From: Candidatus Latescibacterota bacterium
Lineage (GTDB): Bacteria; Latescibacterota; UBA2968; UBA8231
Length of the DNA stretch: 64,000 nucleotides
Direction: 5' to 3'
Assembly: GCA_965215195.1 (NCBI GenBank)
Contig: CBDCDC010000001.1
Location: forward strand, 448,001-512,000
Both the position numbers and the translations under genes were made by a program. The notes beneath the pieces were generated by a model, which was given only the letters and a program-made list of their open reading frames with translations, did no database searches and was not told where the DNA came from. Of this stretch, positions 26,635 to 62,614 are shown one piece after another; position 1 is the stretch's first letter; every line of letters begins with the position of its first letter.

Positions 26635-28308
26635 TTACAAGGCAGGTTCGGATGCGAGATGCTCGGGGTATATTTCAATGTGCTCGGCGTACTGTTGCCG
26701 CAGTTGGCTCAGAAACGCTTCAAAGCGCTCCTCAATGCGCTGACCATTGGCCGCTCGCACCATCTTTTCTACGGTTTGTTGAACCTCGGGATGGGCAAAG
26801 GGGCGCAGTCGGGCCGGGCGTTGTTCCAGCGTGCGAAACACGATGTATCCCGGCCAGATTTTTTCTCGCGGCTGAAAATGCACCAAGAAAGGCCCACCGA
26901 CTTTTCCCACCGGAGTTTTGCGGACGGCCGCCAGCACTTCCGACATGGTGTGCGGGGAGTGGGCGTGTTGCGCGTCTTCCTCGCGGTGGATGTGGTAGAT
27001 GTTATAGTGGAACCAAGCGTTGTGAAAGCGCGGATAAGCCTGAGCGAGGGTCCACATGTCGGCACCTTGGCGCACTTTTTCGGCAACGTCGAGTGCATCG
27101 GCTTCGCGTTGGAGCAGGATGGCTTCATAGATGAGCAGATCGGGATCGGTAAACCAAGCTAGATGCTCCTCGTAATAGGTCCGCATAGCCGCTTCGTCGA
27201 CAATCAGTGCTTCGGCCTCTAGGCGGCGCAGCTCTTCGATCATTAATACCGCACGGCGGTTTTCCAGATAGTGCTGCATCTCGTCGTCGGCGGCTAGTCC
27301 GGCCTGCTGGGCAGCTAGCGGCAGGAGCACGGAATCTACGGCCGTGCGTCTGGCGTACCGAGCAATACTCGCGGTATCTACGGTTACGGGACGCCGCTGA
27401 GGTGAGGTCGCCACGAGCCATTTTAGGTACTGCCCAAGCGCGACCTGCCCTTCTTCGTAGAGCATTAACGGCCTTGTTAATTGCTCGTCTCGGTTGAACT
27501 CGGGTATGCCGTGAGAGGCGGTTTTGCCCAGCTTGACTAGCTGCAACGAGGTTTCTTCGACTAGCTGTAAATTGAATTGTTTTCTGATGTTGGCGCGAAA
27601 TTCCGCCGTGCGCGCGGCAAGGCGATCCGCGTAGAGCCGGTCTTTGATCCTCTTTTTTACGGACCCATAGGGCAGGGGGCGGGCGTCCTCCACGCGCACG
27701 ATGTGGAAGTAGCCCTCTCGGCCTTGAAAGGGCGCAGACAGCTCGCCCGGCTGCATGGAGAAGAGCACCTTGCTGACCGGGCCGATCATCAAGGACTCGT
27801 CCCAGTAGCCCAAATCGCCTCCTTTATCAGCGGTCTGCCGCTCCATAGAAAAACGACGGGCCAACTCGGGGAAATTTTCACCGTCTAGGAGTGCTTGGTA
27901 GAGCGTTTGCGCTTCTGCGGCTGTCTTCACCGCGATATGCCGCCCCCGCACCTCGCGCTTGGTGGGCAAGTCGCTGTCTTCGTAATAGGCCCTGATCTCT
28001 TCGTCCGAGACCGTTACGCGGCTTGTAACTTCCCTTTCGATGAGGCGTTCTACGGCCCGTTGGCGGCGCACGTGCTCCAAGCCGGCTAAGACCCGGGTGC
28101 TCTTGTCCAGTTCCCTATTCCTAGCTTCGAGAAACAGCAACTCGCGATTGATGAGGGTCTCTAGGACCTCTCGCTTTGATTCTTTTTGCTCCAGCTTGTC
28201 CCAAGCCCGCTCTACCTGATCGAGCGTGACGGTGCGCTCGGCGATGCGCGCTGCCACAGAATGGTTCTCGGCGCATCCCAAGAGGAGGACTACTAGCGCT
28301 ATAGCCAC
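26635..28308 (-). CDS. Parvulin (PpiC/SurA/PrsA-like) peptidyl-prolyl isomerase lipoprotein
   Basis: LLLGC lipobox; RHIAVKT...FPELARRFS...KGGDLG; second degenerate PPIase domain; GTG start at 28308 is inferred. Confidence 0.75.
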   Translation of the reverse strand: MAIALVVLLLGCAENHSVAARIAERTVTLDQVERAWDKLEQKESKREVLETLINRELLFLEARNRELDKSTRVLAGLEHVRRQRAVERLIEREVTSRVTVSDEEIRAYYEDSDLPTKREVRGRHIAVKTAAEAQTLYQALLDGENFPELARRFSMERQTADKGGDLGYWDESLMIGPVSKVLFSMQPGELSAPFQGREGYFHIVRVEDARPLPYGSVKKRIKDRLYADRLAARTAEFRANIRKQFNLQLVEETSLQLVKLGKTASHGIPEFNRDEQLTRPLMLYEEGQVALGQYLKWLVATSPQRRPVTVDTASIARYARRTAVDSVLLPLAAQQAGLAADDEMQHYLENRRAVLMIEELRRLEAEALIVDEAAMRTYYEEHLAWFTDPDLLIYEAILLQREADALDVAEKVRQGADMWTLAQAYPRFHNAWFHYNIYHIHREEDAQHAHSPHTMSEVLAAVRKTPVGKVGGPFLVHFQPREKIWPGYIVFRTLEQRPARLRPFAHPEVQQTVEKMVRAANGQRIEERFEAFLSQLRQQYAEHIEIYPEHLASEPAL

Positions 28309-28525
28309 TGGTCGCTGAGTGCGAGGAGAACCAGCAGCCACGTGCGCGCCCAATAGGCGCTGTTCGTGGGCCAGTTCTGCCAGTAGGTTTCGTTGTGGGG
28401 GATTCTGTGATACCACTGGAGCAGGGGAATGGAGGGCAGCTCGCGCAGCCAGATTTCCATGGCTTGGCGAAAGTGTGCAAGCAGGCGCGGCTCGTCCGGG
28501 GCCGTGCCGGCCATGCGATCGAAGT
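28299..28525 (-). pseudogene. C-terminal remnant of a family-5 ABC substrate-binding protein
   Basis: AMEIWLRELPSIPLLQWYHRIPHNETYWQNWP...NSAYW is typical of SBP family 5 C-termini; rest of the gene absent. Confidence 0.6.
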
Positions 28526-28573
28526 GGGTGCTCAGCACGCAGTTAAGCATGACGGACAAGCTCCATACGAAAG

Positions 28574-28602
28574 TTGACATACACTATGCTATTAAATAGC
28601 TT
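28574..28602 (+). promoter_or_regulatory. Putative sigma70 promoter
   Basis: TTGACA-N17-TAGCTT upstream of the 28664 gene. Confidence 0.5.
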
Positions 28603-28663
28603 GAACGGACAAAAGGGCGCATGTTACAACGCTTCTAACGCACTCTCTAAAAGGAGGATAACC

Positions 28664-29572
28664 ATGAAAATTCTTGCTGTTTTTGGCGTTTTGCTGTTGG
28701 CTGCGGGCGCGTGCTTGGCGCACAGCAACGCCAATGGTTTTGGCTATTTCGCGTTGGAATGGCCCGCGGATGTTGCGTACGTCGCCGATGGTGAGGACGG
28801 AGATTGGGCGTGGTACGACCCCAATTTCATCGTCACGCCCGACGAAATGGGCGAGGTCGTCCAGCAGGTGATTCCAGACAAGAGCGATATCGACGTTTCC
28901 ATAAGGACCGCTTGGACGCAGCCCCCCGACAACCGCATCTTGGGCTTTGTGCGGGTGACGGACGACTCCCTGCACGCCGCCGAAACGGATCCAGAGAACG
29001 GGTGGTTTGAGGACGATCTCGAAATTATTACCGACGGCGACCACAGCGGTGGTCCGTACCGCGATCCGAACCAAGTGAACGCCCAGCAGTGGACCATGCA
29101 CGTGCAGGTTCCCGGCGGGTATTCGACGCCCTACGGCAACGGCACGACTTGGCTGCGCAAAGACGCCGACCCGGCCAAGCAGTGGGCCACGGCCTACATT
29201 GAGGCCGATGTCAGTCTCAGCCCTCCGGGCGCTACGCACGGATCGACCAATGTCACCTTAGGCTATGAGTTTGCCATGCCGCTGTGGGTGAACTTGGAAA
29301 ACGACGAAGCCTCTACCGAGCGCGTGGTCCTGCAGCCGGGCATGACCGTTGGTCTCACCTACCAGCTCAACGAGGCCGATACAACGCCGGCTGAAGGCGC
29401 GGCCCGGACGCATCAGCTAGTAACCGGAGACGTCAACGGGGCGCATAGAGATCAGGATTTCGCCTCTGACTTTACCTTGTTGACCGTAGATGAGTACACC
29501 CGAGGCAGCGATGTTGGCACCGCGGTCGAAAGCAGTGCTTGGGGAAAAATTAAGGCGACTTTCGACGAGTAA
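28664..29572 (+). CDS. Secreted CBM9/DOMON-like sugar-binding protein with C-terminal AVE..WG.IK tail
   Basis: RBS AAGGAGG; signal peptide; DGEDGDW, VRVTDD, DDLEIITDGDHSGG; ends GTAVESSAWGKIKATFDE. Confidence 0.75.
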   Translation: MKILAVFGVLLLAAGACLAHSNANGFGYFALEWPADVAYVADGEDGDWAWYDPNFIVTPDEMGEVVQQVIPDKSDIDVSIRTAWTQPPDNRILGFVRVTDDSLHAAETDPENGWFEDDLEIITDGDHSGGPYRDPNQVNAQQWTMHVQVPGGYSTPYGNGTTWLRKDADPAKQWATAYIEADVSLSPPGATHGSTNVTLGYEFAMPLWVNLENDEASTERVVLQPGMTVGLTYQLNEADTTPAEGAARTHQLVTGDVNGAHRDQDFASDFTLLTVDEYTRGSDVGTAVESSAWGKIKATFDE

Positions 29573-29589
29573 CGTTTCCCCATTTTAGC

Positions 29590-29630
29590 AGCGGGGGAGG
29601 AGAGGTGTGTAATGTTTCCTCCCCCGCTTT
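29590..29630 (+). terminator. Intra-operon hairpin or terminator
   Basis: AGCGGGGGAGGA...TCCTCCCCCGCT followed by TT. Confidence 0.55.
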
Positions 29631-29642
29631 CGCGTTTGTAGG

Positions 29643-30389
29643 ATGTCTGGGAAGCGCTTTGCCATGAGTCCATGCTTGGGTGCCTTGGTGCTGCTGGCGC
29701 TGGTCGGTTGTGGCCGCTATTTCCCCGGGCCGATCGCACCCGCGCCCGAAAATCGCCAAGAAGCCTATGCCTCGGTCGAAGACGACGGGACCATTACCGC
29801 TGTTTTTAACCGCCTCGAAATCTCCCTGCGCCCCATGGCGGACGAAGAGCTGAACCGCCAATTCGCCGACTACTCTGCGGCGGGTGCCAATTCCAAGAAT
29901 CCCTATACCTTTGGCAACTGGAAGCCGCTGGGCGATACGTACACGCCGCCAAAGTACACCGTCTTTTCCGTCGAGGTGAAAAATTACGAGTATCCCAAGG
30001 TACATCTGGATCCCACCCGCATAACCCTCGTCTCCCAACAGGCCGGCCGTGCGTACGATCCCCTCAACAGAACGGACATCCTCGAATTCTATGCTTCCAT
30101 GATCCCCGGATATGCGGGCAATGCCTATAGTATCTTCCAAGAGCGGCGGGAGATTCTGACCCGCACCATGTATCCCGACGAAGACGTTTTCAGCGGCCAA
30201 GAAGTCGAGGGGTACGTGGTGTTTCCCGCGTTACCGCACGACATCAATGAGTTTACAGTTCACCTCAGCCACGTGGCGATTCGCTTCGACTTCAGGCAGC
30301 AGCCGGTCGAGACCATAGATCTGGCGTACCGGTTCCAGCGCGAGGTGTTCAGGGGATATCAGCCGCCGGCCGATTGGGCGCGGGAATGA
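29643..30389 (+). CDS. Uncharacterised lipoprotein
   Basis: LVLLALVGC lipobox; stop overlaps the next ATG. Confidence 0.7.
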   Translation: MSGKRFAMSPCLGALVLLALVGCGRYFPGPIAPAPENRQEAYASVEDDGTITAVFNRLEISLRPMADEELNRQFADYSAAGANSKNPYTFGNWKPLGDTYTPPKYTVFSVEVKNYEYPKVHLDPTRITLVSQQAGRAYDPLNRTDILEFYASMIPGYAGNAYSIFQERREILTRTMYPDEDVFSGQEVEGYVVFPALPHDINEFTVHLSHVAIRFDFRQQPVETIDLAYRFQREVFRGYQPPADWARE

Positions 30390-32290
30390 GACGGCTCGCC
30401 GGCAGCCTCGCTTTGTGCGGAGCGTGTTGTCTGAGTGCGCCGCTTGAAGCACAGGTCGAAAGCTATCGGGTCGGTGGGGACGGATTTTCTTGGGATTCGC
30501 AGGCCGCAGTCGCCGGGGGCGTAGATCTGCAAGACCCGGCTCTGATCCGTCCCATCGGTTTGGCAGCAACCGACAACATCCTCCGCTCGCTCGGCTGGAG
30601 CGACTCGCCTACCCTCGACTTTGTCGCCGAAGGCCGTGCCCACATCTGGGACAACGCCGCGATCGAAGGGTCCGCCGCCACCTTGGTCGATGGCGATGAG
30701 CAGACTTCTTCCGGCGACCGCTTCAAAGGGCTGGGGACCGATCAGACCGGTCGCGTCTTTTTCTTGGACTTGGGGGCTTCTTTTCCGGTCAATCGCCTGA
30801 TCTACTTCCCCAGCCCATCCTTTCCCGACGACTTTCCGCGCGCCTTTGAACTTTCCGCCAGCGATGGCCGCGACTATACCCAGCAGGGGGAACCGCGCTA
30901 TCAGGTACTGAAACGCGTTGATTTGCAGACCGAGCCGAGGACGACAATCGACTTCCCAGTGCAGCTAATCCGCTTTATCAAGCTGCGCATCCTTTCTCCC
31001 AATCCGTTTGAAATAGCGGAAATCCAAGCCTTTGGCACGGGTTTCGTGCCCAAGGGCACGTATATTTCCAAGCTCATTGAACTGCCCACAGCAGCGATTC
31101 TCGGTACGCTCTCCGTCAAAGCCACCAAGTTGCGCCGGCAGTCAGACGGCCTCCTGCGGCCAACAGCGGAAGCAGCCGCGTCCGTGGACCTGACCCTGCG
31201 CAATGGCGCTGACGAGACCCCCTTGGTCCATTTTGAAATCGTCGATCGCGAAACGGGTTCGGAGCAGCCCACGACCGCAGACGCCTATACTAAGCTGGCC
31301 GAGGATTTTCGCGGTTCCATCCTCGACGATGCCGAAAATTGGACTTGGAAGAATCCGATCCGCATTGATTCGACCGGAACTTTTACCTATCCCCTCGAAC
31401 TGCCCGGCCCGAGGCGGTACTTTGATTTTCAGCTCTTTTTTCGCGGCACTTCTACCGATCTCGTCCAGATAGACAGCTTGGCGGTTAGCTACTCACTGCC
31501 TCTGGCCGACCGCGCCGTAGGCGAGGTAGCCGTTGTCGCAGACCCGTTCCCCGCAGGGGGCATCGTTGCGGTGCCGGCCGGTCGAGATACCCTTTTTACC
31601 TATGATATTCGGGCGGAATTTGGCAGCACTGCGCAGGTTGGATTCGATGGCTTGCACATCGCGACCCAAACCGAACCGACGTTGCTCAAGTTCGAGATGG
31701 GCGAGCCGCTCGTCGAGGTAGTGCCCGACAGCGTCCACGCGGATGCGAGTGGGTTGATGCTGTACTTCCCATCGAACCGGATCGCGCCGAATAACAACCA
31801 GCCGCTGCGCGTTACTTTTCGCACGGCGATTCTGGTCTATGCCACTAACTTGGTGAGCCACCTAATCGACTCCGGGGGCCGCTTGCCCCAGCCCGTCGCG
31901 GCCGGCGATGCCAGTCCGGGTGTTGGCACTAACACCAACCGGGTCTTTTTCTCCAATGCCGCAAGAGGGGGGATTTTATCCGCGATGCAGGTCGTACCGG
32001 CGGTGTGTACGCCCAATGGGGACGGCGTCAACGAAGAGAGTCGCATCGTTTTCCAAGCCCTGCGTCTGGTGCGGGAAGTCGATTTTTCCATCGGCATATA
32101 CGATTTGGCTGGACGCCGGGTGCGGCAGCTATTTTTCGCCGCCTTGCCTGCCGGCGCCTACGAGCACACCTGGGATGGCCGCGATGCGACCGGCGATCTG
32201 GTGCCTCCAGGGGCTTATGTCGTGCGCATTGCGGCTGACACCGAATCGGGAGAAGAGGTGCTGGCGAGGACGCTTAGCGTGGCCTATTGA
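30386..32290 (+). CDS. Large secreted protein with discoidin-like N-region and C-terminal FlgD-Ig-like domain
   Basis: Signal peptide; LDLGASFPV...FEIAEIQAFG; TPNGDGVNE...IYDLAGRRVR...WDGRD...VPPGAY...LSVAY. Confidence 0.75.
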   Translation: MRRLAGSLALCGACCLSAPLEAQVESYRVGGDGFSWDSQAAVAGGVDLQDPALIRPIGLAATDNILRSLGWSDSPTLDFVAEGRAHIWDNAAIEGSAATLVDGDEQTSSGDRFKGLGTDQTGRVFFLDLGASFPVNRLIYFPSPSFPDDFPRAFELSASDGRDYTQQGEPRYQVLKRVDLQTEPRTTIDFPVQLIRFIKLRILSPNPFEIAEIQAFGTGFVPKGTYISKLIELPTAAILGTLSVKATKLRRQSDGLLRPTAEAAASVDLTLRNGADETPLVHFEIVDRETGSEQPTTADAYTKLAEDFRGSILDDAENWTWKNPIRIDSTGTFTYPLELPGPRRYFDFQLFFRGTSTDLVQIDSLAVSYSLPLADRAVGEVAVVADPFPAGGIVAVPAGRDTLFTYDIRAEFGSTAQVGFDGLHIATQTEPTLLKFEMGEPLVEVVPDSVHADASGLMLYFPSNRIAPNNNQPLRVTFRTAILVYATNLVSHLIDSGGRLPQPVAAGDASPGVGTNTNRVFFSNAARGGILSAMQVVPAVCTPNGDGVNEESRIVFQALRLVREVDFSIGIYDLAGRRVRQLFFAALPAGAYEHTWDGRDATGDLVPPGAYVVRIAADTESGEEVLARTLSVAY

Positions 32291-42102: not shown

Positions 42103-43245
42103 TCAAAAACCGAGCCGGACGCCCGCGGAGTACGCATGGGCGTCCGCATTGTAGAAAGCGTCGTTGGACGCGACCGCGCGGTAGAGCCACTCCAGTTCGA
42201 GGGCGATCTCTCGGAGCCGGGTGCTTTCTAGGTAAAACACACGCCCTAGGCTCAAGCGTGCGGTGCGGCGCGTTTCCGCCGTGGATTCCCCAGTGGGAAA
42301 TGCTGGCCGGTGGCTGTAGAGGCGGCTTTCGCTTTGCAAGGAGGTCGCCAATTCCCAGTCTAGCGGGGCCAAGTACTTTAGAGTGGCACTCCATTGATCC
42401 CCATCATAGTTGTAGAGGTCTTCAAAAAGCTCGTCCGGGTCGTACCAGTGCGCCTTGGAGGCCTGAGCTTCGTAGAGCTGCGCCTTAGATTTCGTCTTGG
42501 CCTTGTAGCCATCGTCGAAGAGTTCGTCCGGGTCGTACCAGAACCAATCGGCATAGCGGCTCTGGCCGGCGAGGTTGCGCTGGTGGTGCCACGCTAGCTG
42601 CAATCCGAGGTTGGGCCCCAGGGATTGGGCGGCCTTGAGGCGGGTGCCCCACCTGAGCAGGTTGCGGCTGGGCTGGGCCGTTTCTCGCAGGTAGGATTTA
42701 AGGCCCAACTCGCCGTTTAGCTGCAAGGTGGTGCGGGTGGGAAAGTAGTGGGTTAGCTGGGCGTCGAGGTGCTGTTCGGCGTAGTTGTAGTCGGCCGCGT
42801 TGAGAAAGTTTTGGTAGCTCAGGGTATAGTCGAGGCGGCCGAGCATATCCGGGTGTAGATAAGACTCAACGCTGGCGAAAGCCCAGCCGGCCGCAAAGTC
42901 TCGGTAGGAGTAGAGCGGGCGGTCCAAGCGCAGGCTTAGGGCGGCACCAGAAAAGAACAGGCCGGCCGCCCCCAAGGGACGCGCATAGCTCGCGCCAAAG
43001 CGGTGCAAGTGGTTGAAAAGGTCGGGGTTTTCGCTGAATACGTTGGCGCTGCCCGAGTAGTACAAGTCCAAGTCGGCGTCGAGCTGGTAGGAGAAGTCGA
43101 TATAGGCCGACTGGATCAGGTCGCTGCGCTGGCTGGTGGTGAGAAAAACATTGTCCGTATAGGTGGCGTACAGGTCGGCGTTGAGCGCGACTTGAGCCTC
43201 GGCTGCGGAAATTAGCGCGATTAGGCAGGCGGGTAGGCACTTCAT
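42103..43245 (-). CDS. Probable outer-membrane beta-barrel protein
   Basis: Signal peptide; YTDNVF; aromatic alternating strands; C-terminal AGVRLGF. Confidence 0.7.
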   Translation of the reverse strand: MKCLPACLIALISAAEAQVALNADLYATYTDNVFLTTSQRSDLIQSAYIDFSYQLDADLDLYYSGSANVFSENPDLFNHLHRFGASYARPLGAAGLFFSGAALSLRLDRPLYSYRDFAAGWAFASVESYLHPDMLGRLDYTLSYQNFLNAADYNYAEQHLDAQLTHYFPTRTTLQLNGELGLKSYLRETAQPSRNLLRWGTRLKAAQSLGPNLGLQLAWHHQRNLAGQSRYADWFWYDPDELFDDGYKAKTKSKAQLYEAQASKAHWYDPDELFEDLYNYDGDQWSATLKYLAPLDWELATSLQSESRLYSHRPAFPTGESTAETRRTARLSLGRVFYLESTRLREIALELEWLYRAVASNDAFYNADAHAYSAGVRLGF

Positions 43246-43970
43246 TTGCGGTCCTTTTGCTTTTTGTACTGCTTGGCATCTTTTAGACGCGGGGGTACGT
43301 AGCGGCGTTTTAGGCGTTTTTTGACTAGGTATTTCGCGCGCTCGTCCGGGTGCTTTAGGAGGCGGCGCAAAAGGCGGGCGTCGTCAATGCCGTCGCCATC
43401 CTCGTCCAAGAAGAAGTCCATCCGCCGGTTTAGAGCGCGTAGCCGCTGGTGCAGCCGCTTGAGCGGATCGTGCATGCCGTCGCCATCGGCGTCGCGGAAG
43501 TGCTTGATCCGGTGCTTGCGCTCTTCGACGATGCGGCCAAAGCGATAGCCCATAAGCCCGTGCGGGCCGTACTTTGCGCCGGTTATATCGTTTAAGCGGT
43601 CGCCATTGCAATCGACGACATTGTCGATGAAGCCGTCTTTGTCGGCGTCGCGGAAGCGGCTGTCGAGGTCGTTTACGCCGTCGCCATCGGCGTCGCGGAA
43701 GCGGTCGTTTACGCCGTCGCCATCCTCGTCGGCAAAGGAAAAGTGGTGGGGATAAGGCTGGCCATCGCGGTCGTTTACGCCGTCGCCATCCTCGTCGCGG
43801 AAGCGGTCGTTTACGCCGTCGCGGTCGGCATCGACATAGCCGACGACGGGCGCGGGGGTTGCGTCGGCCGGCCCGGATTGGGCGCAGACGGAACAGGCCA
43901 GCAGGGCGCTGGCCGCGATAGCGATGACGACCATGTTTCTCTCCATCCGCTCGTACGCAACAGACAGCAC
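43242..43970 (-). CDS. Exported Ca-binding repeat protein (DxDGDGVND, TSP3/EF-hand-like) with basic tail
   Basis: About 8 DxDxDG motifs; DNA repeat GTCGTTTACGCCGTCGC; signal peptide; start uncertain. Confidence 0.75.
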   Translation of the reverse strand: MLSVAYERMERNMVVIAIAASALLACSVCAQSGPADATPAPVVGYVDADRDGVNDRFRDEDGDGVNDRDGQPYPHHFSFADEDGDGVNDRFRDADGDGVNDLDSRFRDADKDGFIDNVVDCNGDRLNDITGAKYGPHGLMGYRFGRIVEERKHRIKHFRDADGDGMHDPLKRLHQRLRALNRRMDFFLDEDGDGIDDARLLRRLLKHPDERAKYLVKKRLKRRYVPPRLKDAKQYKKQKDRK

Positions 43971-44009: not shown

Positions 44010-44738
44010 CTATCGGCCGAAGGACTCCTTGACGCGGCCCCAGCTCGTCTCCTCGACGGCTGTCGTGGCTTTGCCCGCAGCCGCTGGCTCGCTCTCTTCC
44101 TCGCTGCCCTTTGAATGGCTGCCGCGAAAGGTTGCGCGCTGTTCGGCGGTCAGGATGGCCTCAAAGCCGGCGCGGTACTGTTCGCCGAGGGCCTGCTTCT
44201 GCTCGTTTAGGCCCTCTCTGAGTGCTTGGATCTGGGCCTGCTGATCGTCGCTCAAGCCGAGTTGCTCGACCAACGCGCCCTTGTGCTTTCCTCGCTTGCC
44301 GCGATTGGCCGTAAGTCCTGCGAGGGCGTCGCGCTGCTCATCGGTTAGGATGGCCTCAAAGCCGGCGCGGTACTCTTCTTTAGTCAGGTCCTGCTCTTTG
44401 AGGGCTTGAATTTGCGTCTGCTGGTCGTCGCTCAGGCCGAGCGGGTTCCTGATTGCCGCGAGGGTTTGGTGCTGCTCGTCGGTCAGGATGGCCTCAAAGC
44501 CGGCGCGGTACTGTTCGCCGAGGGCCTGTCTCTGGCCGCGTATGTCCTCTTTGAGGGCTTGAATTTGCGCTTGCTGGTCTTCGCTCAGGCCGAGTTGCTC
44601 GACCAACGCGCCCTTGTGCCCGCTGCGCTTGCCGTGCCCGTGGAATCCCTGCTTGCCTCCCCGGCCTCGCGCCGAGGTGTCCATGGCTGCCGCGGCTACC
44701 AACAGCAGCGCGGCTGCGATTCCCCACGTTGTCTTCAC
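44010..44738 (-). CDS. Spy/CpxP/ZraP-like periplasmic protein with C-terminal AVE..WG.VK tail
   Basis: GTG after AAGGAGG; signal peptide; three LGLSxDQQ...ILT[DA]EQ units; ends TAVEETSWGRVKESFGR. Confidence 0.8.
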   Translation of the reverse strand: MKTTWGIAAALLLVAAAAMDTSARGRGGKQGFHGHGKRSGHKGALVEQLGLSEDQQAQIQALKEDIRGQRQALGEQYRAGFEAILTDEQHQTLAAIRNPLGLSDDQQTQIQALKEQDLTKEEYRAGFEAILTDEQRDALAGLTANRGKRGKHKGALVEQLGLSDDQQAQIQALREGLNEQKQALGEQYRAGFEAILTAEQRATFRGSHSKGSEEESEPAAAGKATTAVEETSWGRVKESFGR

Positions 44739-61007: not shown

Positions 61008-61982
61008 GTGTCCCCCTGTGCAAGAGTGGAGGGGGTTGATCTAAAAGCCAACGCCCGTACGAGAAAAATAACCTCTATCGCAGAAATGCGAGGAGGTTCT
61101 TCTCCTGATTTGGTATTCAGCGATAGGTTCAATGGCGAGCAACAGGCCGATGTTATCTATCACGAGTACACCCACGCCGTCATATACAAATTGCACGATC
61201 GCAACGTCGGCTCATCTGGACAAGGAGCAGCCCTTGGGGAAGCCGTAGCCTTTTACTTCCCTCAGTCGTTCCTCGATGACCCTCGACAGGAATCAGGCAC
61301 ACCCGATGAGTACGACCTCCTGTTTAACTTAAGGAAGTATCCAAGAGACTATAATAACACCACCTCAGCGCATCAGAGGGGTCTGATAGCAGCAGGGGCC
61401 GCTTGGGATCTTCGGGCTGACATAGGAGCGACCAAGACGGATAAAATCATCTTCGCCGCGATGGAGATGGACTCTCCCCGCGCCAATACCTTTGAGGAAT
61501 TTTACGACAATGTGCTGCTGGCCGACGACGACCTGTACGGGAATGGAACTTGGAACTGGCAGGGGTGTAGTCAAGGGGGCGACAAAAGTCCCCACGCCGG
61601 CGAAATATGGAAGGCCTTTGACGACAATCATGGAATGCCCTCCAGCCTGCTTGACGAAGATCCTGATTGTCCCTCCTCGAAGCCGCAAGCGCAAGGAGCG
61701 GCCGCCGATGCGGTCGAAGGGGCCTATCCCAATCCGTTCAATTCGTCCGTGCATCTGCGCTATCACCTCGACGAGCCGGGGCGGGTCGAGGTGGCTGTCT
61801 ATTCAACCACCGGCCAACTCATAAGACGCCTATCCTCCCACGAGCAGGCGCAGCCGGGGTCGTACTTGGTTGTTTGGGACGGGCAATCGGATGGGGGCAC
61901 ACCCGTTGCCAGCGGCGTGTACTTCGTGCGCGTGAAGTCGCCGAGCTTGGTCAAATCGTTCAAGCTCAGCCTGATTCGGTAG
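61008..61982 (+). pseudogene. 5'-truncated M4/M36-like zinc metallopeptidase with YPNPFN/FlgD-type C-terminal domain
   Basis: DVIYHEYTH...GAALGEA...AWDLR; YPNPFN...WDGQSDGG..VASGVYF...KLSLIR; no signal peptide or propeptide and no clear start. Confidence 0.6.
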
Positions 61983-61987
61983 CCCTG

Positions 61988-62614
61988 ATGAGACCGCTGA
62001 CGCTCAGCCTTATAGCCTGTTGGGTCTTGGCCGCTTGTAGTGAGCCGATGGGTTATTCGTGTGAGGATCCCGAGCCTTGGCCGGATTGGTCCTGTGCATC
62101 GGCGAAGTTGGCGCTCACATGCGCTGGTCTCCCGCCACCGGAGGCGGTGTGCCCGGAAATATTATTCCCTCTTCTTTCTTGGGCGATGAATGATCTGAAC
62201 TGGGGCTTTCTTATATACTTGATGTCCCCAGACTTCACGTTTGTTGATGAGACGACCGGAATCAGCACACAAGGCCGAGCGCACGAAGAGAGCCTAGCCG
62301 ATAGTAGTCTGTACTGCCACTACCGTGGAGCAGAGTTCGATTTCCACGTTTCCTCCCGCACCCAGACGGATGAGTGTCTAGTGGTGTGTGGATTGGTCGA
62401 AATGCGCCTGTACCGCGAGCATGACGCTGGTTTCATAGTCAACGACGAGACCTGTCTGACGGCTTGCCCACAAGCCGAGGACGGTTTATGGCGTCTGACT
62501 GAGTGGCGGATTTTGCGGAGTGTGCCCCCTGCGCAAACCGAGGAGGGATTTGAAGTGGCCACTTGGGGCGAAGTCAAAAGAAAGGAGTGGAGTAGGGATT
62601 TCTGCACAGACTGA
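61988..62614 (+). CDS. Cys-rich lipoprotein with NTF2/SnoaL-like region and C-terminal WG.VK tail
   Basis: WVLAAC lipobox; LMSPDFTF...GLWRLTEW; ends EVATWGEVKRKEWSRDFCTD. Confidence 0.65.
   Translation: MRPLTLSLIACWVLAACSEPMGYSCEDPEPWPDWSCASAKLALTCAGLPPPEAVCPEILFPLLSWAMNDLNWGFLIYLMSPDFTFVDETTGISTQGRAHEESLADSSLYCHYRGAEFDFHVSSRTQTDECLVVCGLVEMRLYREHDAGFIVNDETCLTACPQAEDGLWRLTEWRILRSVPPAQTEEGFEVATWGEVKRKEWSRDFCTD

Follow-up and report, generated by a model that had tools for sequence, protein, structure and literature searches.

What does it mean when exported proteins of different folds end in the same few residues? Short C-terminal tags have repeatedly led to sorting machines, including the sortases, exosortases, rhombosortases and the type IX secretion system (T9SS). 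The question is raised here by a 64,000-nucleotide stretch of the genome of a Candidatus Latescibacterota bacterium (contig CBDCDC010000001.1, positions 448,001 to 512,000; hereafter the window). In an initial annotation, made from the letters of the window, three unrelated exported proteins were noted to share a C-terminal tail around the motif WG-x-[VI]-K, and the tail was proposed to be a sorting or secretion signal. Is it a real tag, or the end of one expanded protein family? Which proteins and which bacteria carry it, and what might read it? We addressed these questions in the source genome (G000; 6.13 Mb, 2 contigs, 60% G+C, with the window at C1:448001-512000), in the rest of the window's phylum and in a second phylum, the Eisenbacteria.

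We have very little doubt that the tail is a genuine, portable and constrained C-terminal tag on exported proteins. Its consensus is [ST]-A-V-E-x2-[ST]-W-G-x-[IVL]-K-x2-[FLYM], followed by 2–21 residues and the stop codon. Gene calls were crude picks from six-frame open reading frames (ORFs), of which 22,851 are at least 80 amino acids (aa) and 8,899 at least 150 aa long. The regular expression WG.[VIL]K falls within the last 30 residues of 60 of the 22,851; in the 8,899 longer ORFs there are 71 matches, and in 57 the Trp is inside the last 20 residues. The strict motif [STAG][AVS][VI][EAQ]..[STG]WG.[VIL]K is C-terminal 47 times and internal not once in ORFs of at least 150 aa. The profile made from alignment A2, which contains 59 tails, found 59 of the 22,851 ORFs at E ≤ 0.01, each match ending no more than 25 residues before the stop codon, with no ORF between E 0.01 and 1 and 75 matches in all at E ≤ 10; this search is partly circular, as 39 of the 59 rows come from the source genome. 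Three of the 59 matches have W-A in place of W-G. As a back-translated DNA pattern (A-V-E, three residues, W-G, one residue, [IVM]-K) the tail has 27 matches in the genome and its reversed control none, and the reversed control was zero in nearly all genomes scanned. Genome-wide, the tail as a class is far beyond chance. A proteome scan was what the annotation had suggested, and its proposal of a tag came through well: the motif is not rare, and its strict form is confined to C-termini.

The three strings from which the proposal started are all present where the annotation placed them, each with a stop codon after it (Table 1). Two of the three proteins, the CBM9-like and the LTXXQ (Spy/CpxP-like) one, are indeed members of the profile. 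The third, encoded at 61667-62614, is not: it has no A2 profile match at E ≤ 10 and shares only WG-x-VK with the tail, which is indistinguishable from chance. No Pfam or NCBIfam family was found for this protein.

The tail is under strong constraint. In the A2 alignment of 59 tails W, G and K are invariant and V is conserved in at least 90%, and the third residue past the Lys is F in 27, L in 11, Y in 4 and M in 3 of 56. In the source genome 2–21 residues, most commonly 5, separate the Lys from the stop codon. This leaves no room for a transmembrane (TM) helix behind the motif, as the annotation had also observed. W, I/V and F/Y occupy positions i, i+3 and i+7, spaced as along one side of a short amphipathic helix. 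Conservation within the CBM9-like family is concentrated in the same place. Among its 46 aligned members W293 and K297 are two of the five invariant columns and T286, V288 and G294 are conserved in at least 90%, though the domains of the paralogs are only 20–31% identical. The AlphaFold2 model of the CBM9-like protein is confident over most of the domain (overall pLDDT, the per-residue confidence, 87.2; pTM 0.85), while the final residue blocks have a mean pLDDT of 43–53 with a short helix predicted at 287-300. In this model the tail is a flexible appendage behind a folded domain. It is best read as a short linear motif of about 15 residues with the core [ST]-W-G-x-[IVL]-K-x2-[FYLM]; in the window's phylum [ST]-A-V-E-x2 stands ahead of this core.

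Which proteins carry the tail? With the tails removed, clustering of the 60 regular-expression matches gave 23 clusters. The largest holds 34 CBM9-like paralogs, four others are pairs, and the remaining 18 are singletons, two of them spurious in our judgement. The tail is therefore found on some 20 families unrelated to the CBM9-like one, as expected of the portable tag on many folds that the annotation had envisaged. Pfam domains on the carriers outside the CBM9-like family include FGE-sulfatase, PD40, lipocalin, Cache, SBP_bac_3, Temptin_C, HmuY, fasciclin, WD40 and LTXXQ, and some have no known domain. Carriers are short (median 310 aa, range 89–494). A crude signal-peptide rule is passed by 50 of the 59, compared with 748 of 3,140 size-matched ORFs, an enrichment of the kind that the annotation had asked to be tested; several of the nine carriers that fail the rule show a hydrophobic leader by eye. 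A loose lipobox is present in 4 of 58. Both the signal-peptide and the lipobox rule are heuristic. Taken together, the tail is carried by small proteins exported through Sec, most of them of periplasmic or ligand-binding types. The tail and the xPNPFN/FlgD-type C-terminal domain (CTD) associated with T9SS are mutually exclusive in this genome: there are 58 tail proteins and 64 CTD proteins, the latter with a median of 713 aa, and none is both.

The CBM9-like carrier of the window is one of the 34 paralogs. A Pfam scan of it gave no family at E ≤ 0.1. Its model has a predicted CBM9 fold, with a family 9 carbohydrate-binding module as the top Foldseek match (1i82_A, E 1.8e-11, TMt 0.77; also 7nwn, 3.3e-10), and many homologs hold a precomputed PF06452 assignment. 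In many of these paralogs the predicted signal-peptide cleavage would leave His as the N-terminal residue (AxA|H). We considered this N-terminal His as a copper 'histidine brace' and dropped the idea, since orthologs of the window copy are without it. The LTXXQ carrier is a singleton in the tail-less clustering, and matches the NCBIfam Spy model PRK10455 at 1.6e-7, well under its cut-off. An 89-aa ORF at C1:432314-432583 of the source genome also ends in the tail (19.3 bits). It is without a signal peptide, its upstream part resembles the end of the CBM9-like family, and there is an overlap with the start of a parvulin gene; truncation or a frameshift may have produced this copy.

The tail is apparently undescribed. 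When 19 tail proteins were scanned against NCBIfam at E ≤ 0.1, nothing was placed over the tail and no sorting-signal model matched; Pfam scans of the carriers placed no family over it either. At the thresholds used it thus matches no Pfam or NCBIfam model of a sorting tag, which agrees with the annotation. Full-text literature searches for spellings of the motif found no description of it, and no such tag was the subject of the papers listed for the broader topics of C-terminal sorting in Latescibacteria and of T9SS, candidate phyla and FlgD. Endings such as ...WGxIKxLYR occur in metagenomic proteins, and we know of no description of them.

Within the window's phylum, the DNA pattern finds the tail in 88 of 168 species genomes, with a sharply uneven distribution. 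It is present in 71 of 75 genomes of family f1, including 30 of 30 of the window's genus, and in none of the 56 genomes of three sister families of the same class (f2 0/31, f3 0/3, f4 0/22). In other classes it is found in f5 (3/3), f6 (3/3), f7 (1/1), f8 (1/1), f9 (2/2), f11 (1/1) and f12 (4/6). It is rare in f10 (1/13) and was not found in f13 (0/1) or f14 (0/5). The protein profile likewise gave no match at E ≤ 10 in two tail-less genomes. A scan of a collection with one genome per prokaryote species, made with a longer pattern, gave at least 117 loci. Among the matches listed the stop codon lies 2–11 codons past the Lys in 116 of 117, the remaining one being masked by N, and the taxa are Latescibacterota (most), Eisenbacteria, 'Gemmatimonadota', Handelsmanbacteria and unnamed bacteria. 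Three loci titled Gemmatimonadota, Gemmatimonas phototrophica or Handelsmanbacteria (L021, L098, L024) are in genomes with 24–31 copies of the ~900-aa barrel family described below, scoring up to ~1,400 bits. Because the 'Gemmatimonadota' and Handelsmanbacteria genomes carry this family of the window's lineage at such high scores, we take them as close relatives of the window's family, and only Eisenbacteria are counted as a second phylum. Eisenbacteria genome G169 has 36 strict tail matches, on carriers without a CBM9 domain, and the CBM9-family profile matches a tail-rich Eisenbacteria genome only at its tail positions, 264-299. Many Eisenbacteria genomes have a core-only variant that ends exactly at [ST]-W-G-x-[VI]-K-S-L-Y-R.

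What, then, reads the tail? The annotation had named no recognising machinery in the window. A candidate is now the lipoprotein encoded directly upstream of the CBM9-like gene, from which its gene diverges at a distance of 158 bp. By its sequence it is a parvulin-type peptidyl-prolyl isomerase (PPIase), with matches to Rotamase_2 (PF13145, 3.8e-21) and Rotamase (PF00639, 2.1e-16). It belongs to a family of ~450–650-aa proteins made of two PrsA/SurA-like modules in tandem, mostly predicted lipoproteins, of which the source genome holds 36 (a strict lipobox in 21, a looser one by eye in about 9 more). The nearest solved relatives are SurA (1m5y, 1.9e-32), PrsA (4wo7, 8.1e-32), PEB4 (3rfw) and HP0175. 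None of the four members scanned against NCBIfam reached an equivalog cut-off, the only matches being sub-cutoff ones to PrsA, PpiD, SurA and EpsD. For the window copy the top match is PRK00059 (85.2 bits, cut-off 303) and SurA scores 32.3 bits (cut-off 394); the highest EpsD (TIGR02925) score among the four is 72.5 bits (cut-off 108.9).

Two observations connect this family with the tail. The first is position: a tail gene is no more than 2 kb away from 11 of the 36 paralogs (4.4% expected, binomial P 3e-7) and no more than 15 kb away from 30 of them (24% expected). The second is distribution. Scored at E ≤ 1e-60 with profile A5, the PPIase is present in 70 of 75 genomes of f1, 2 of 3 of f5, 3 of 3 of f6, 1 of 1 each of f7, f8 and f11, 2 of 2 of f9 and 5 of 6 of f12, and was not found in f2 (0/31), f3 (0/3), f4 (0/22), f10 (0/13), f13 (0/1) or f14 (0/5). 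Tail and PPIase agree in 160 of the 168 genomes (both 83, neither 77, tail only 5, PPIase only 3), counts made without a species tree on related genomes that are not independent. Among the candidates tested, only the parvulin family follows the tail. These were a handful, and a better-correlated family may exist.

In Eisenbacteria, PPIase genes are flanked by tail genes as well: one in G169 and, in two genomes inspected ORF by ORF, a tandem of four in G319 and a single gene in G269. The coordinates show the same adjacency in G280 and G290. At the thresholds used above, 36 of 206 Eisenbacteria genomes have the tail and 69 the PPIase (both 20, tail only 16, PPIase only 49, neither 121). Both thresholds under-call here: all five of the 'PPIase-only' genomes tested have 10–33 profile matches to the tail, and among five 'neither' genomes three have 18–27 tail matches and all five a full-length PPIase at 1e-46 to 1e-59. 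Tail and PPIase both seem near-universal in Eisenbacteria, which is consistent with a link and is no test of it. Because the thresholds cut through both distributions, we do not count this phylum as a replicate of the co-occurrence.

A co-folding prediction also bears on the pair. Residues 49-593 of the window PPIase (alignment A5) were folded with the last 45 residues of its CBM9-like neighbour (alignment A1). The prediction scored 0.60 (runs 0.59, 0.60 and 0.60) compared with 0.00 for the best of three controls and is graded as weak support; agreement between the runs is at least 26% of contacts, and the pLDDT of the partner is at least 43. The mark used is reached by 116 of 157 solved complexes and by 2 of 215 mismatched pairs.

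We propose that the two-module parvulin chaperone lipoproteins recognise the tail as a short docking motif, a reading to which we give a probability of about 0.45 on the co-occurrence, the adjacency and the weak co-fold. The tag would sit on a flexible linker behind a small Sec-exported protein and would be recognised in the periplasm by a dedicated SurA/PrsA-like lipoprotein, which could then dock the tagged protein to the membrane or escort it to an assembly site. In the source genome that site may be the repeated uptake cassettes in which a CBM9-tag protein is paired with a ~900-aa predicted outer-membrane barrel. We infer the physical binding, the helix and the outcome, be it tethering or hand-over. 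There are precedents for such a role. PrsA is a lipoprotein foldase of exported proteins. SurA is reported to use its core and its P1 parvulin domain to bind short peptides with aromatic residues (PMC11401910). A wider version of the proposal is more doubtful: the tag and its parvulin readers might form a hitherto unrecognised envelope sorting and docking system of candidate phyla of the FCB group, which assembles tagged binding proteins on outer-membrane uptake machines (the cassettes of the new ~900-aa barrel family), analogous to SusC/D-type loci but made of unrelated parts.

Several points weigh against a parvulin reader. Five genomes have the tail with no PPIase at E ≤ 1e-60 (G117, G131, G132, G041, G052) and three show the reverse (G121, G068, G162). 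The co-occurrence is confounded by shared ancestry, and few independent clades discriminate (f10, f13 and genus g9). The Eisenbacteria replicate is not clean, and two genomes of that phylum, G340 and G370, have the PPIase and only one or two tails. Stoichiometry varies, from 36 PPIases to about 59 tails in the source genome to one full-length PPIase and 15 strict pattern matches in G048. Most non-CBM9 tail genes of the source genome are without an adjacent PPIase, and the tag is without an Ar-X-Ar motif. As for the co-fold, the mark was reached at a score of 0.60 or less by 18 of the 157 solved complexes and by both of the mismatched pairs that passed; ours is a weak pass.

Could the tail be explained otherwise? 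The annotation favoured a tag for outer-membrane translocation, processing or surface docking, perhaps a miniature counterpart of the T9SS tails. As a secretion or surface-sorting signal, the tail would take periplasmic intermediates across or into the outer membrane through T9SS or another translocon, as a short alternative to the ~80-aa CTD that is perhaps clipped. The mutual exclusion of tail and CTD would fit such a signal, and so would the cassettes that tail genes share with a T9SS-CTD protein and a predicted outer-membrane barrel; HmuY, CBM9 and fasciclin proteins are surface proteins in other bacteria, and a SurA-like partner suits escort to the outer membrane equally well. However, the T9SS component SprA (TIGR04189) is found in 167 of the 168 genomes, including every tail-less family and 56 of 56 genomes of f2–f4. 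T9SS is therefore not sufficient for the tail, and in the phylogenetic profile, made for T9SS with SprA alone, it does not track it. We rejected T9SS as the tail's machine, as it does not discriminate. In addition, the tag of 15–25 residues contains no folded CTD, many carriers are of classical periplasmic types (LTXXQ/Spy-like, SBP_bac_3, PD40/TolB-like, stand-alone Cache), and no translocon or peptidase candidate was found, though PorU, PorV and peptidases were not searched for. We consider a secretion signal unlikely. An envelope anchor that needs no partner is less likely again. Here the tail would be a short amphipathic helix with W, I/V and F/Y on one face, next to R/K, and would itself attach to a membrane leaflet or some other envelope polymer, in the manner of the membrane-targeting sequence of MinD or of the amphipathic anchors at the C-termini of some penicillin-binding proteins. 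The helical spacing of the consensus, the low-confidence helix at 287-300 and the hydrophobic residues at Lys+3 all speak for it, and with a lipobox in so few carriers most would otherwise be unanchored. Yet two helical turns are short for stable membrane binding, and the invariant W and K, the near-invariant G and the conserved TAVE point to a specific protein reader. The tag is also missing from whole sister families that have the same envelope machinery as far as tested (SprA).

The tail might also mark a site of processing or attachment, recognised by a C-terminal protease or a degradation system, or joined covalently to the cell wall through its Lys as is the C-terminal Lys of Braun's lipoprotein. 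The Lys is indeed invariant and close to the C-terminus, the Eisenbacteria variants stop exactly at ...K-S-L-Y-R, and the variable length past the Lys in the source genome looks as if only the upstream part matters. Against this, it seems unlikely that purifying selection would maintain a degron on 59 conserved proteins that are unrelated, no candidate enzyme was found, though none was searched for, and nothing ties the tag to peptidoglycan enzymes, cell-wall enzymes likewise not having been searched for. We think such a site improbable, slightly more so than the anchor. There remains the sceptical explanation that there is no tag, and that one expanded paralog family has a conserved end while the other cases are chance. 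The CBM9-like family does supply 34 of the 60 regular-expression matches, and one of the three original examples fails the profile. This explanation is hardly credible in view of some 20 further unrelated clusters with 10 different Pfam families, the absence of the strict motif from internal positions, the empty reversed controls and the Eisenbacteria carriers without a CBM9 domain.

Table 1. Features of the window that bear on the C-terminal tag, with positions counted from the first letter of the window
Feature	Position	Strand	Evidence
C-terminal tag GTAVESSAWGKIKATFDE and stop, on the CBM9-like protein	29516..29572	+	profile 29.4 bits, E 5.4e-7
C-terminal tag TTAVEETSWGRVKESFGR and stop, on the LTXXQ/Spy-like protein	44010..44066	-	profile 32.5 bits, E 5.6e-8
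Doubtful third example, EGFEVATWGEVKRKEW... and stop (entry also written ...EGFEVATWGEVKRKEWSRDFCTD and stop)	62543..62614	+	string present, then stop
Exported CBM9-like carrier, 302 aa from Met at 28664: signal peptide, beta-sandwich, linker, tag	28664..29572	+	Foldseek, AlphaFold2
Exported LTXXQ (Spy/CpxP-like) carrier, unrelated to the CBM9 family	44010..44735	-	PF07813 at 3.1e-13
Candidate reader, two-module SurA/PrsA-like parvulin lipoprotein, 593 aa, Cys48 after a hydrophobic leader	26635..28416	-	Rotamase_2, Rotamase
Cassette neighbour, 248-aa predicted lipoprotein	29643..30389	+	no Pfam family; one of 10 paralogs beside 10 tail loci
Cassette neighbour, 638-aa protein with T9SS-type CTD	30374..32290	+	FlgD_ig 4.5e-10, CHU_C 3.7e-5, residues 541-624

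The CBM9-tail genes are located in repeated cassettes, together with genes for a ~900-aa protein, a ~250-aa lipoprotein, a ~600-aa parvulin, DUF6785 membrane proteins and T9SS-CTD proteins. Such cassettes are seen at 26635-32290 of the window, at locus L159 (C2:268000-277000 of the source genome) and at about 14 further loci of that genome, and TPR/ASPIC-like proteins are included in them. They look like a polysaccharide-utilisation-type system of unfamiliar parts. The ~900-aa protein belongs to neither a Pfam nor an NCBIfam family. It has Asp-rich loops that are conserved, and its database relatives, at least 1,010, are all 'hypothetical' where named. Its model has long antiparallel strands (pLDDT 66) and reads as a large beta-barrel; the Foldseek matches are all outer-membrane barrels (MtrB, SlpA, LptD, ushers), at E 3e-9 to 1e-5 with TM-scores of 0.17–0.35.

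Other members of the cassettes were tried as partners of the tail and rejected. The barrel family (A3), with 15 copies beside 14 tail loci, was not found in tail-rich G169 and is present in the tail-less f10 and f13; it is kept where tail and PPIase are missing, in 12 of 13 genomes of f10, 1 of 1 of f13 and 3 of 3 of genus g9. The ~250-aa lipoprotein (A4) has the same pattern and tracks the cassette, not the tail, being present in tail-less G051 and not found in G169. DUF6785/DUF6784 polytopic membrane proteins are encoded next to tail genes in the source genome and G048. As partners they were dropped, with 25 and 23 matches in the tail-less genomes G025 and G093 and none in G169. This family is expanded to 23–26 copies per genome in the tail-less genomes and tail-bearing ones alike (for example L160, 2446-4431, in the source genome). 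In tail-less G051, the one member of f10 inspected for this, CBM9-like homologs end in a PKD-like domain (WxWDFGDG...NPxH) at the place of the tail (L166, L169, L171, L172, L173).

Two further observations concern neighbours of tail genes. In the window, the LTXXQ carrier gene is convergent with a gene at 43242-43970 (- strand) for a 242-aa exported protein of Asp-rich repeats (DADGDGVNDRFRD...), which resemble calcium-binding TSP3-type repeats. In both phyla, a small tail-bearing protein adjoins a ~940-aa protein, encoded at C2:4270049-4272820 in the source genome (L013) and at 8765-12367 of L163 in Eisenbacteria G169. The carrier is Temptin_C-like in the former and a 202-aa protein in the latter. 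The two ~940-aa neighbours are 49% identical and look like a copper P-type ATPase by eye, so that this may be a conserved synteny for a probable periplasmic metal-binding protein.

Per genome, the tag is borne by some 10 to over 50 proteins; it occurs in about half the genomes of one candidate phylum, and in a second phylum it is widespread. Current Pfam and NCBIfam annotation misses it, and a simple profile is enough to detect it. Whatever its mechanism, it improves the localisation calls for hundreds of 'hypothetical' proteins. Should the parvulin link be true, a hugely expanded family of chaperones would gain its first function, the set of proteins that these uncultured polysaccharide-degrading bacteria place at their envelope would be defined, and a small, portable pair of peptide and receptor would become available. 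For SurA-type chaperones, a defined tag on folded soluble clients would also be new.

How does the tail compare with known systems? The CTDs of T9SS (Por_Secre_tail, FlgD_ig, CHU_C) are likewise C-terminal elements on exported proteins, found in the same genomes on a non-overlapping set of proteins. Unlike the tail, a CTD is folded, ~80 aa long and borne by large proteins, and none of the tail proteins matched the FlgD_ig or CHU_C Pfam models, whereas the 638-aa cassette neighbour does. The distributions differ as well, with SprA near-universal in the phylum and the tail in about half of its genomes. The beta-signal of outer membrane proteins, given in the same SurA report as polar-x-G-x-x-[aromatic/hydrophobic]-x-[aromatic/hydrophobic] (PMC11401910), resembles the tail in being C-terminal, in its polar-x-Gly start ([ST]-W-G in the tail) and in an aromatic or hydrophobic residue near the end. 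By that description the beta-signal has its hydrophobic residues at G+3 and G+5, as in a strand, whereas those of the tail are at G+2 and G+6, as in a helix, and the tail is carried by soluble folds such as the CBM9 beta-sandwich, not by barrels.

The candidate reader shares a chaperone module and a parvulin domain with SurA, PrsA, PpiD, PEB4 and HP0175. It differs from them as a tandem of two modules, present in 36 copies and below all NCBIfam equivalog cut-offs. We know of no defined C-terminal tag on folded soluble clients of SurA or PrsA. The EpsD-family PPIase (TIGR02925) is tied to PEP-CTERM/exosortase loci, and as a parvulin-type PPIase with a genetic link to a C-terminal sorting system it resembles the candidate reader; the reader scores below the TIGR02925 cut-off, and there is no PEP-CTERM signal. 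A further parallel is with the sortase-type signals (LPXTG, PEP-CTERM/exosortase, GlyGly-CTERM/rhombosortase and PGF-CTERM/archaeosortase). These too are short signatures at the extreme C-terminus of many unrelated Sec-exported proteins, dozens per genome, with a patchy distribution across lineages that matches one accessory gene family. In contrast to them, the tail has no hydrophobic TM segment followed by a basic cluster, and the gene that co-occurs with it encodes a parvulin-type chaperone lipoprotein in place of a polytopic transpeptidase.

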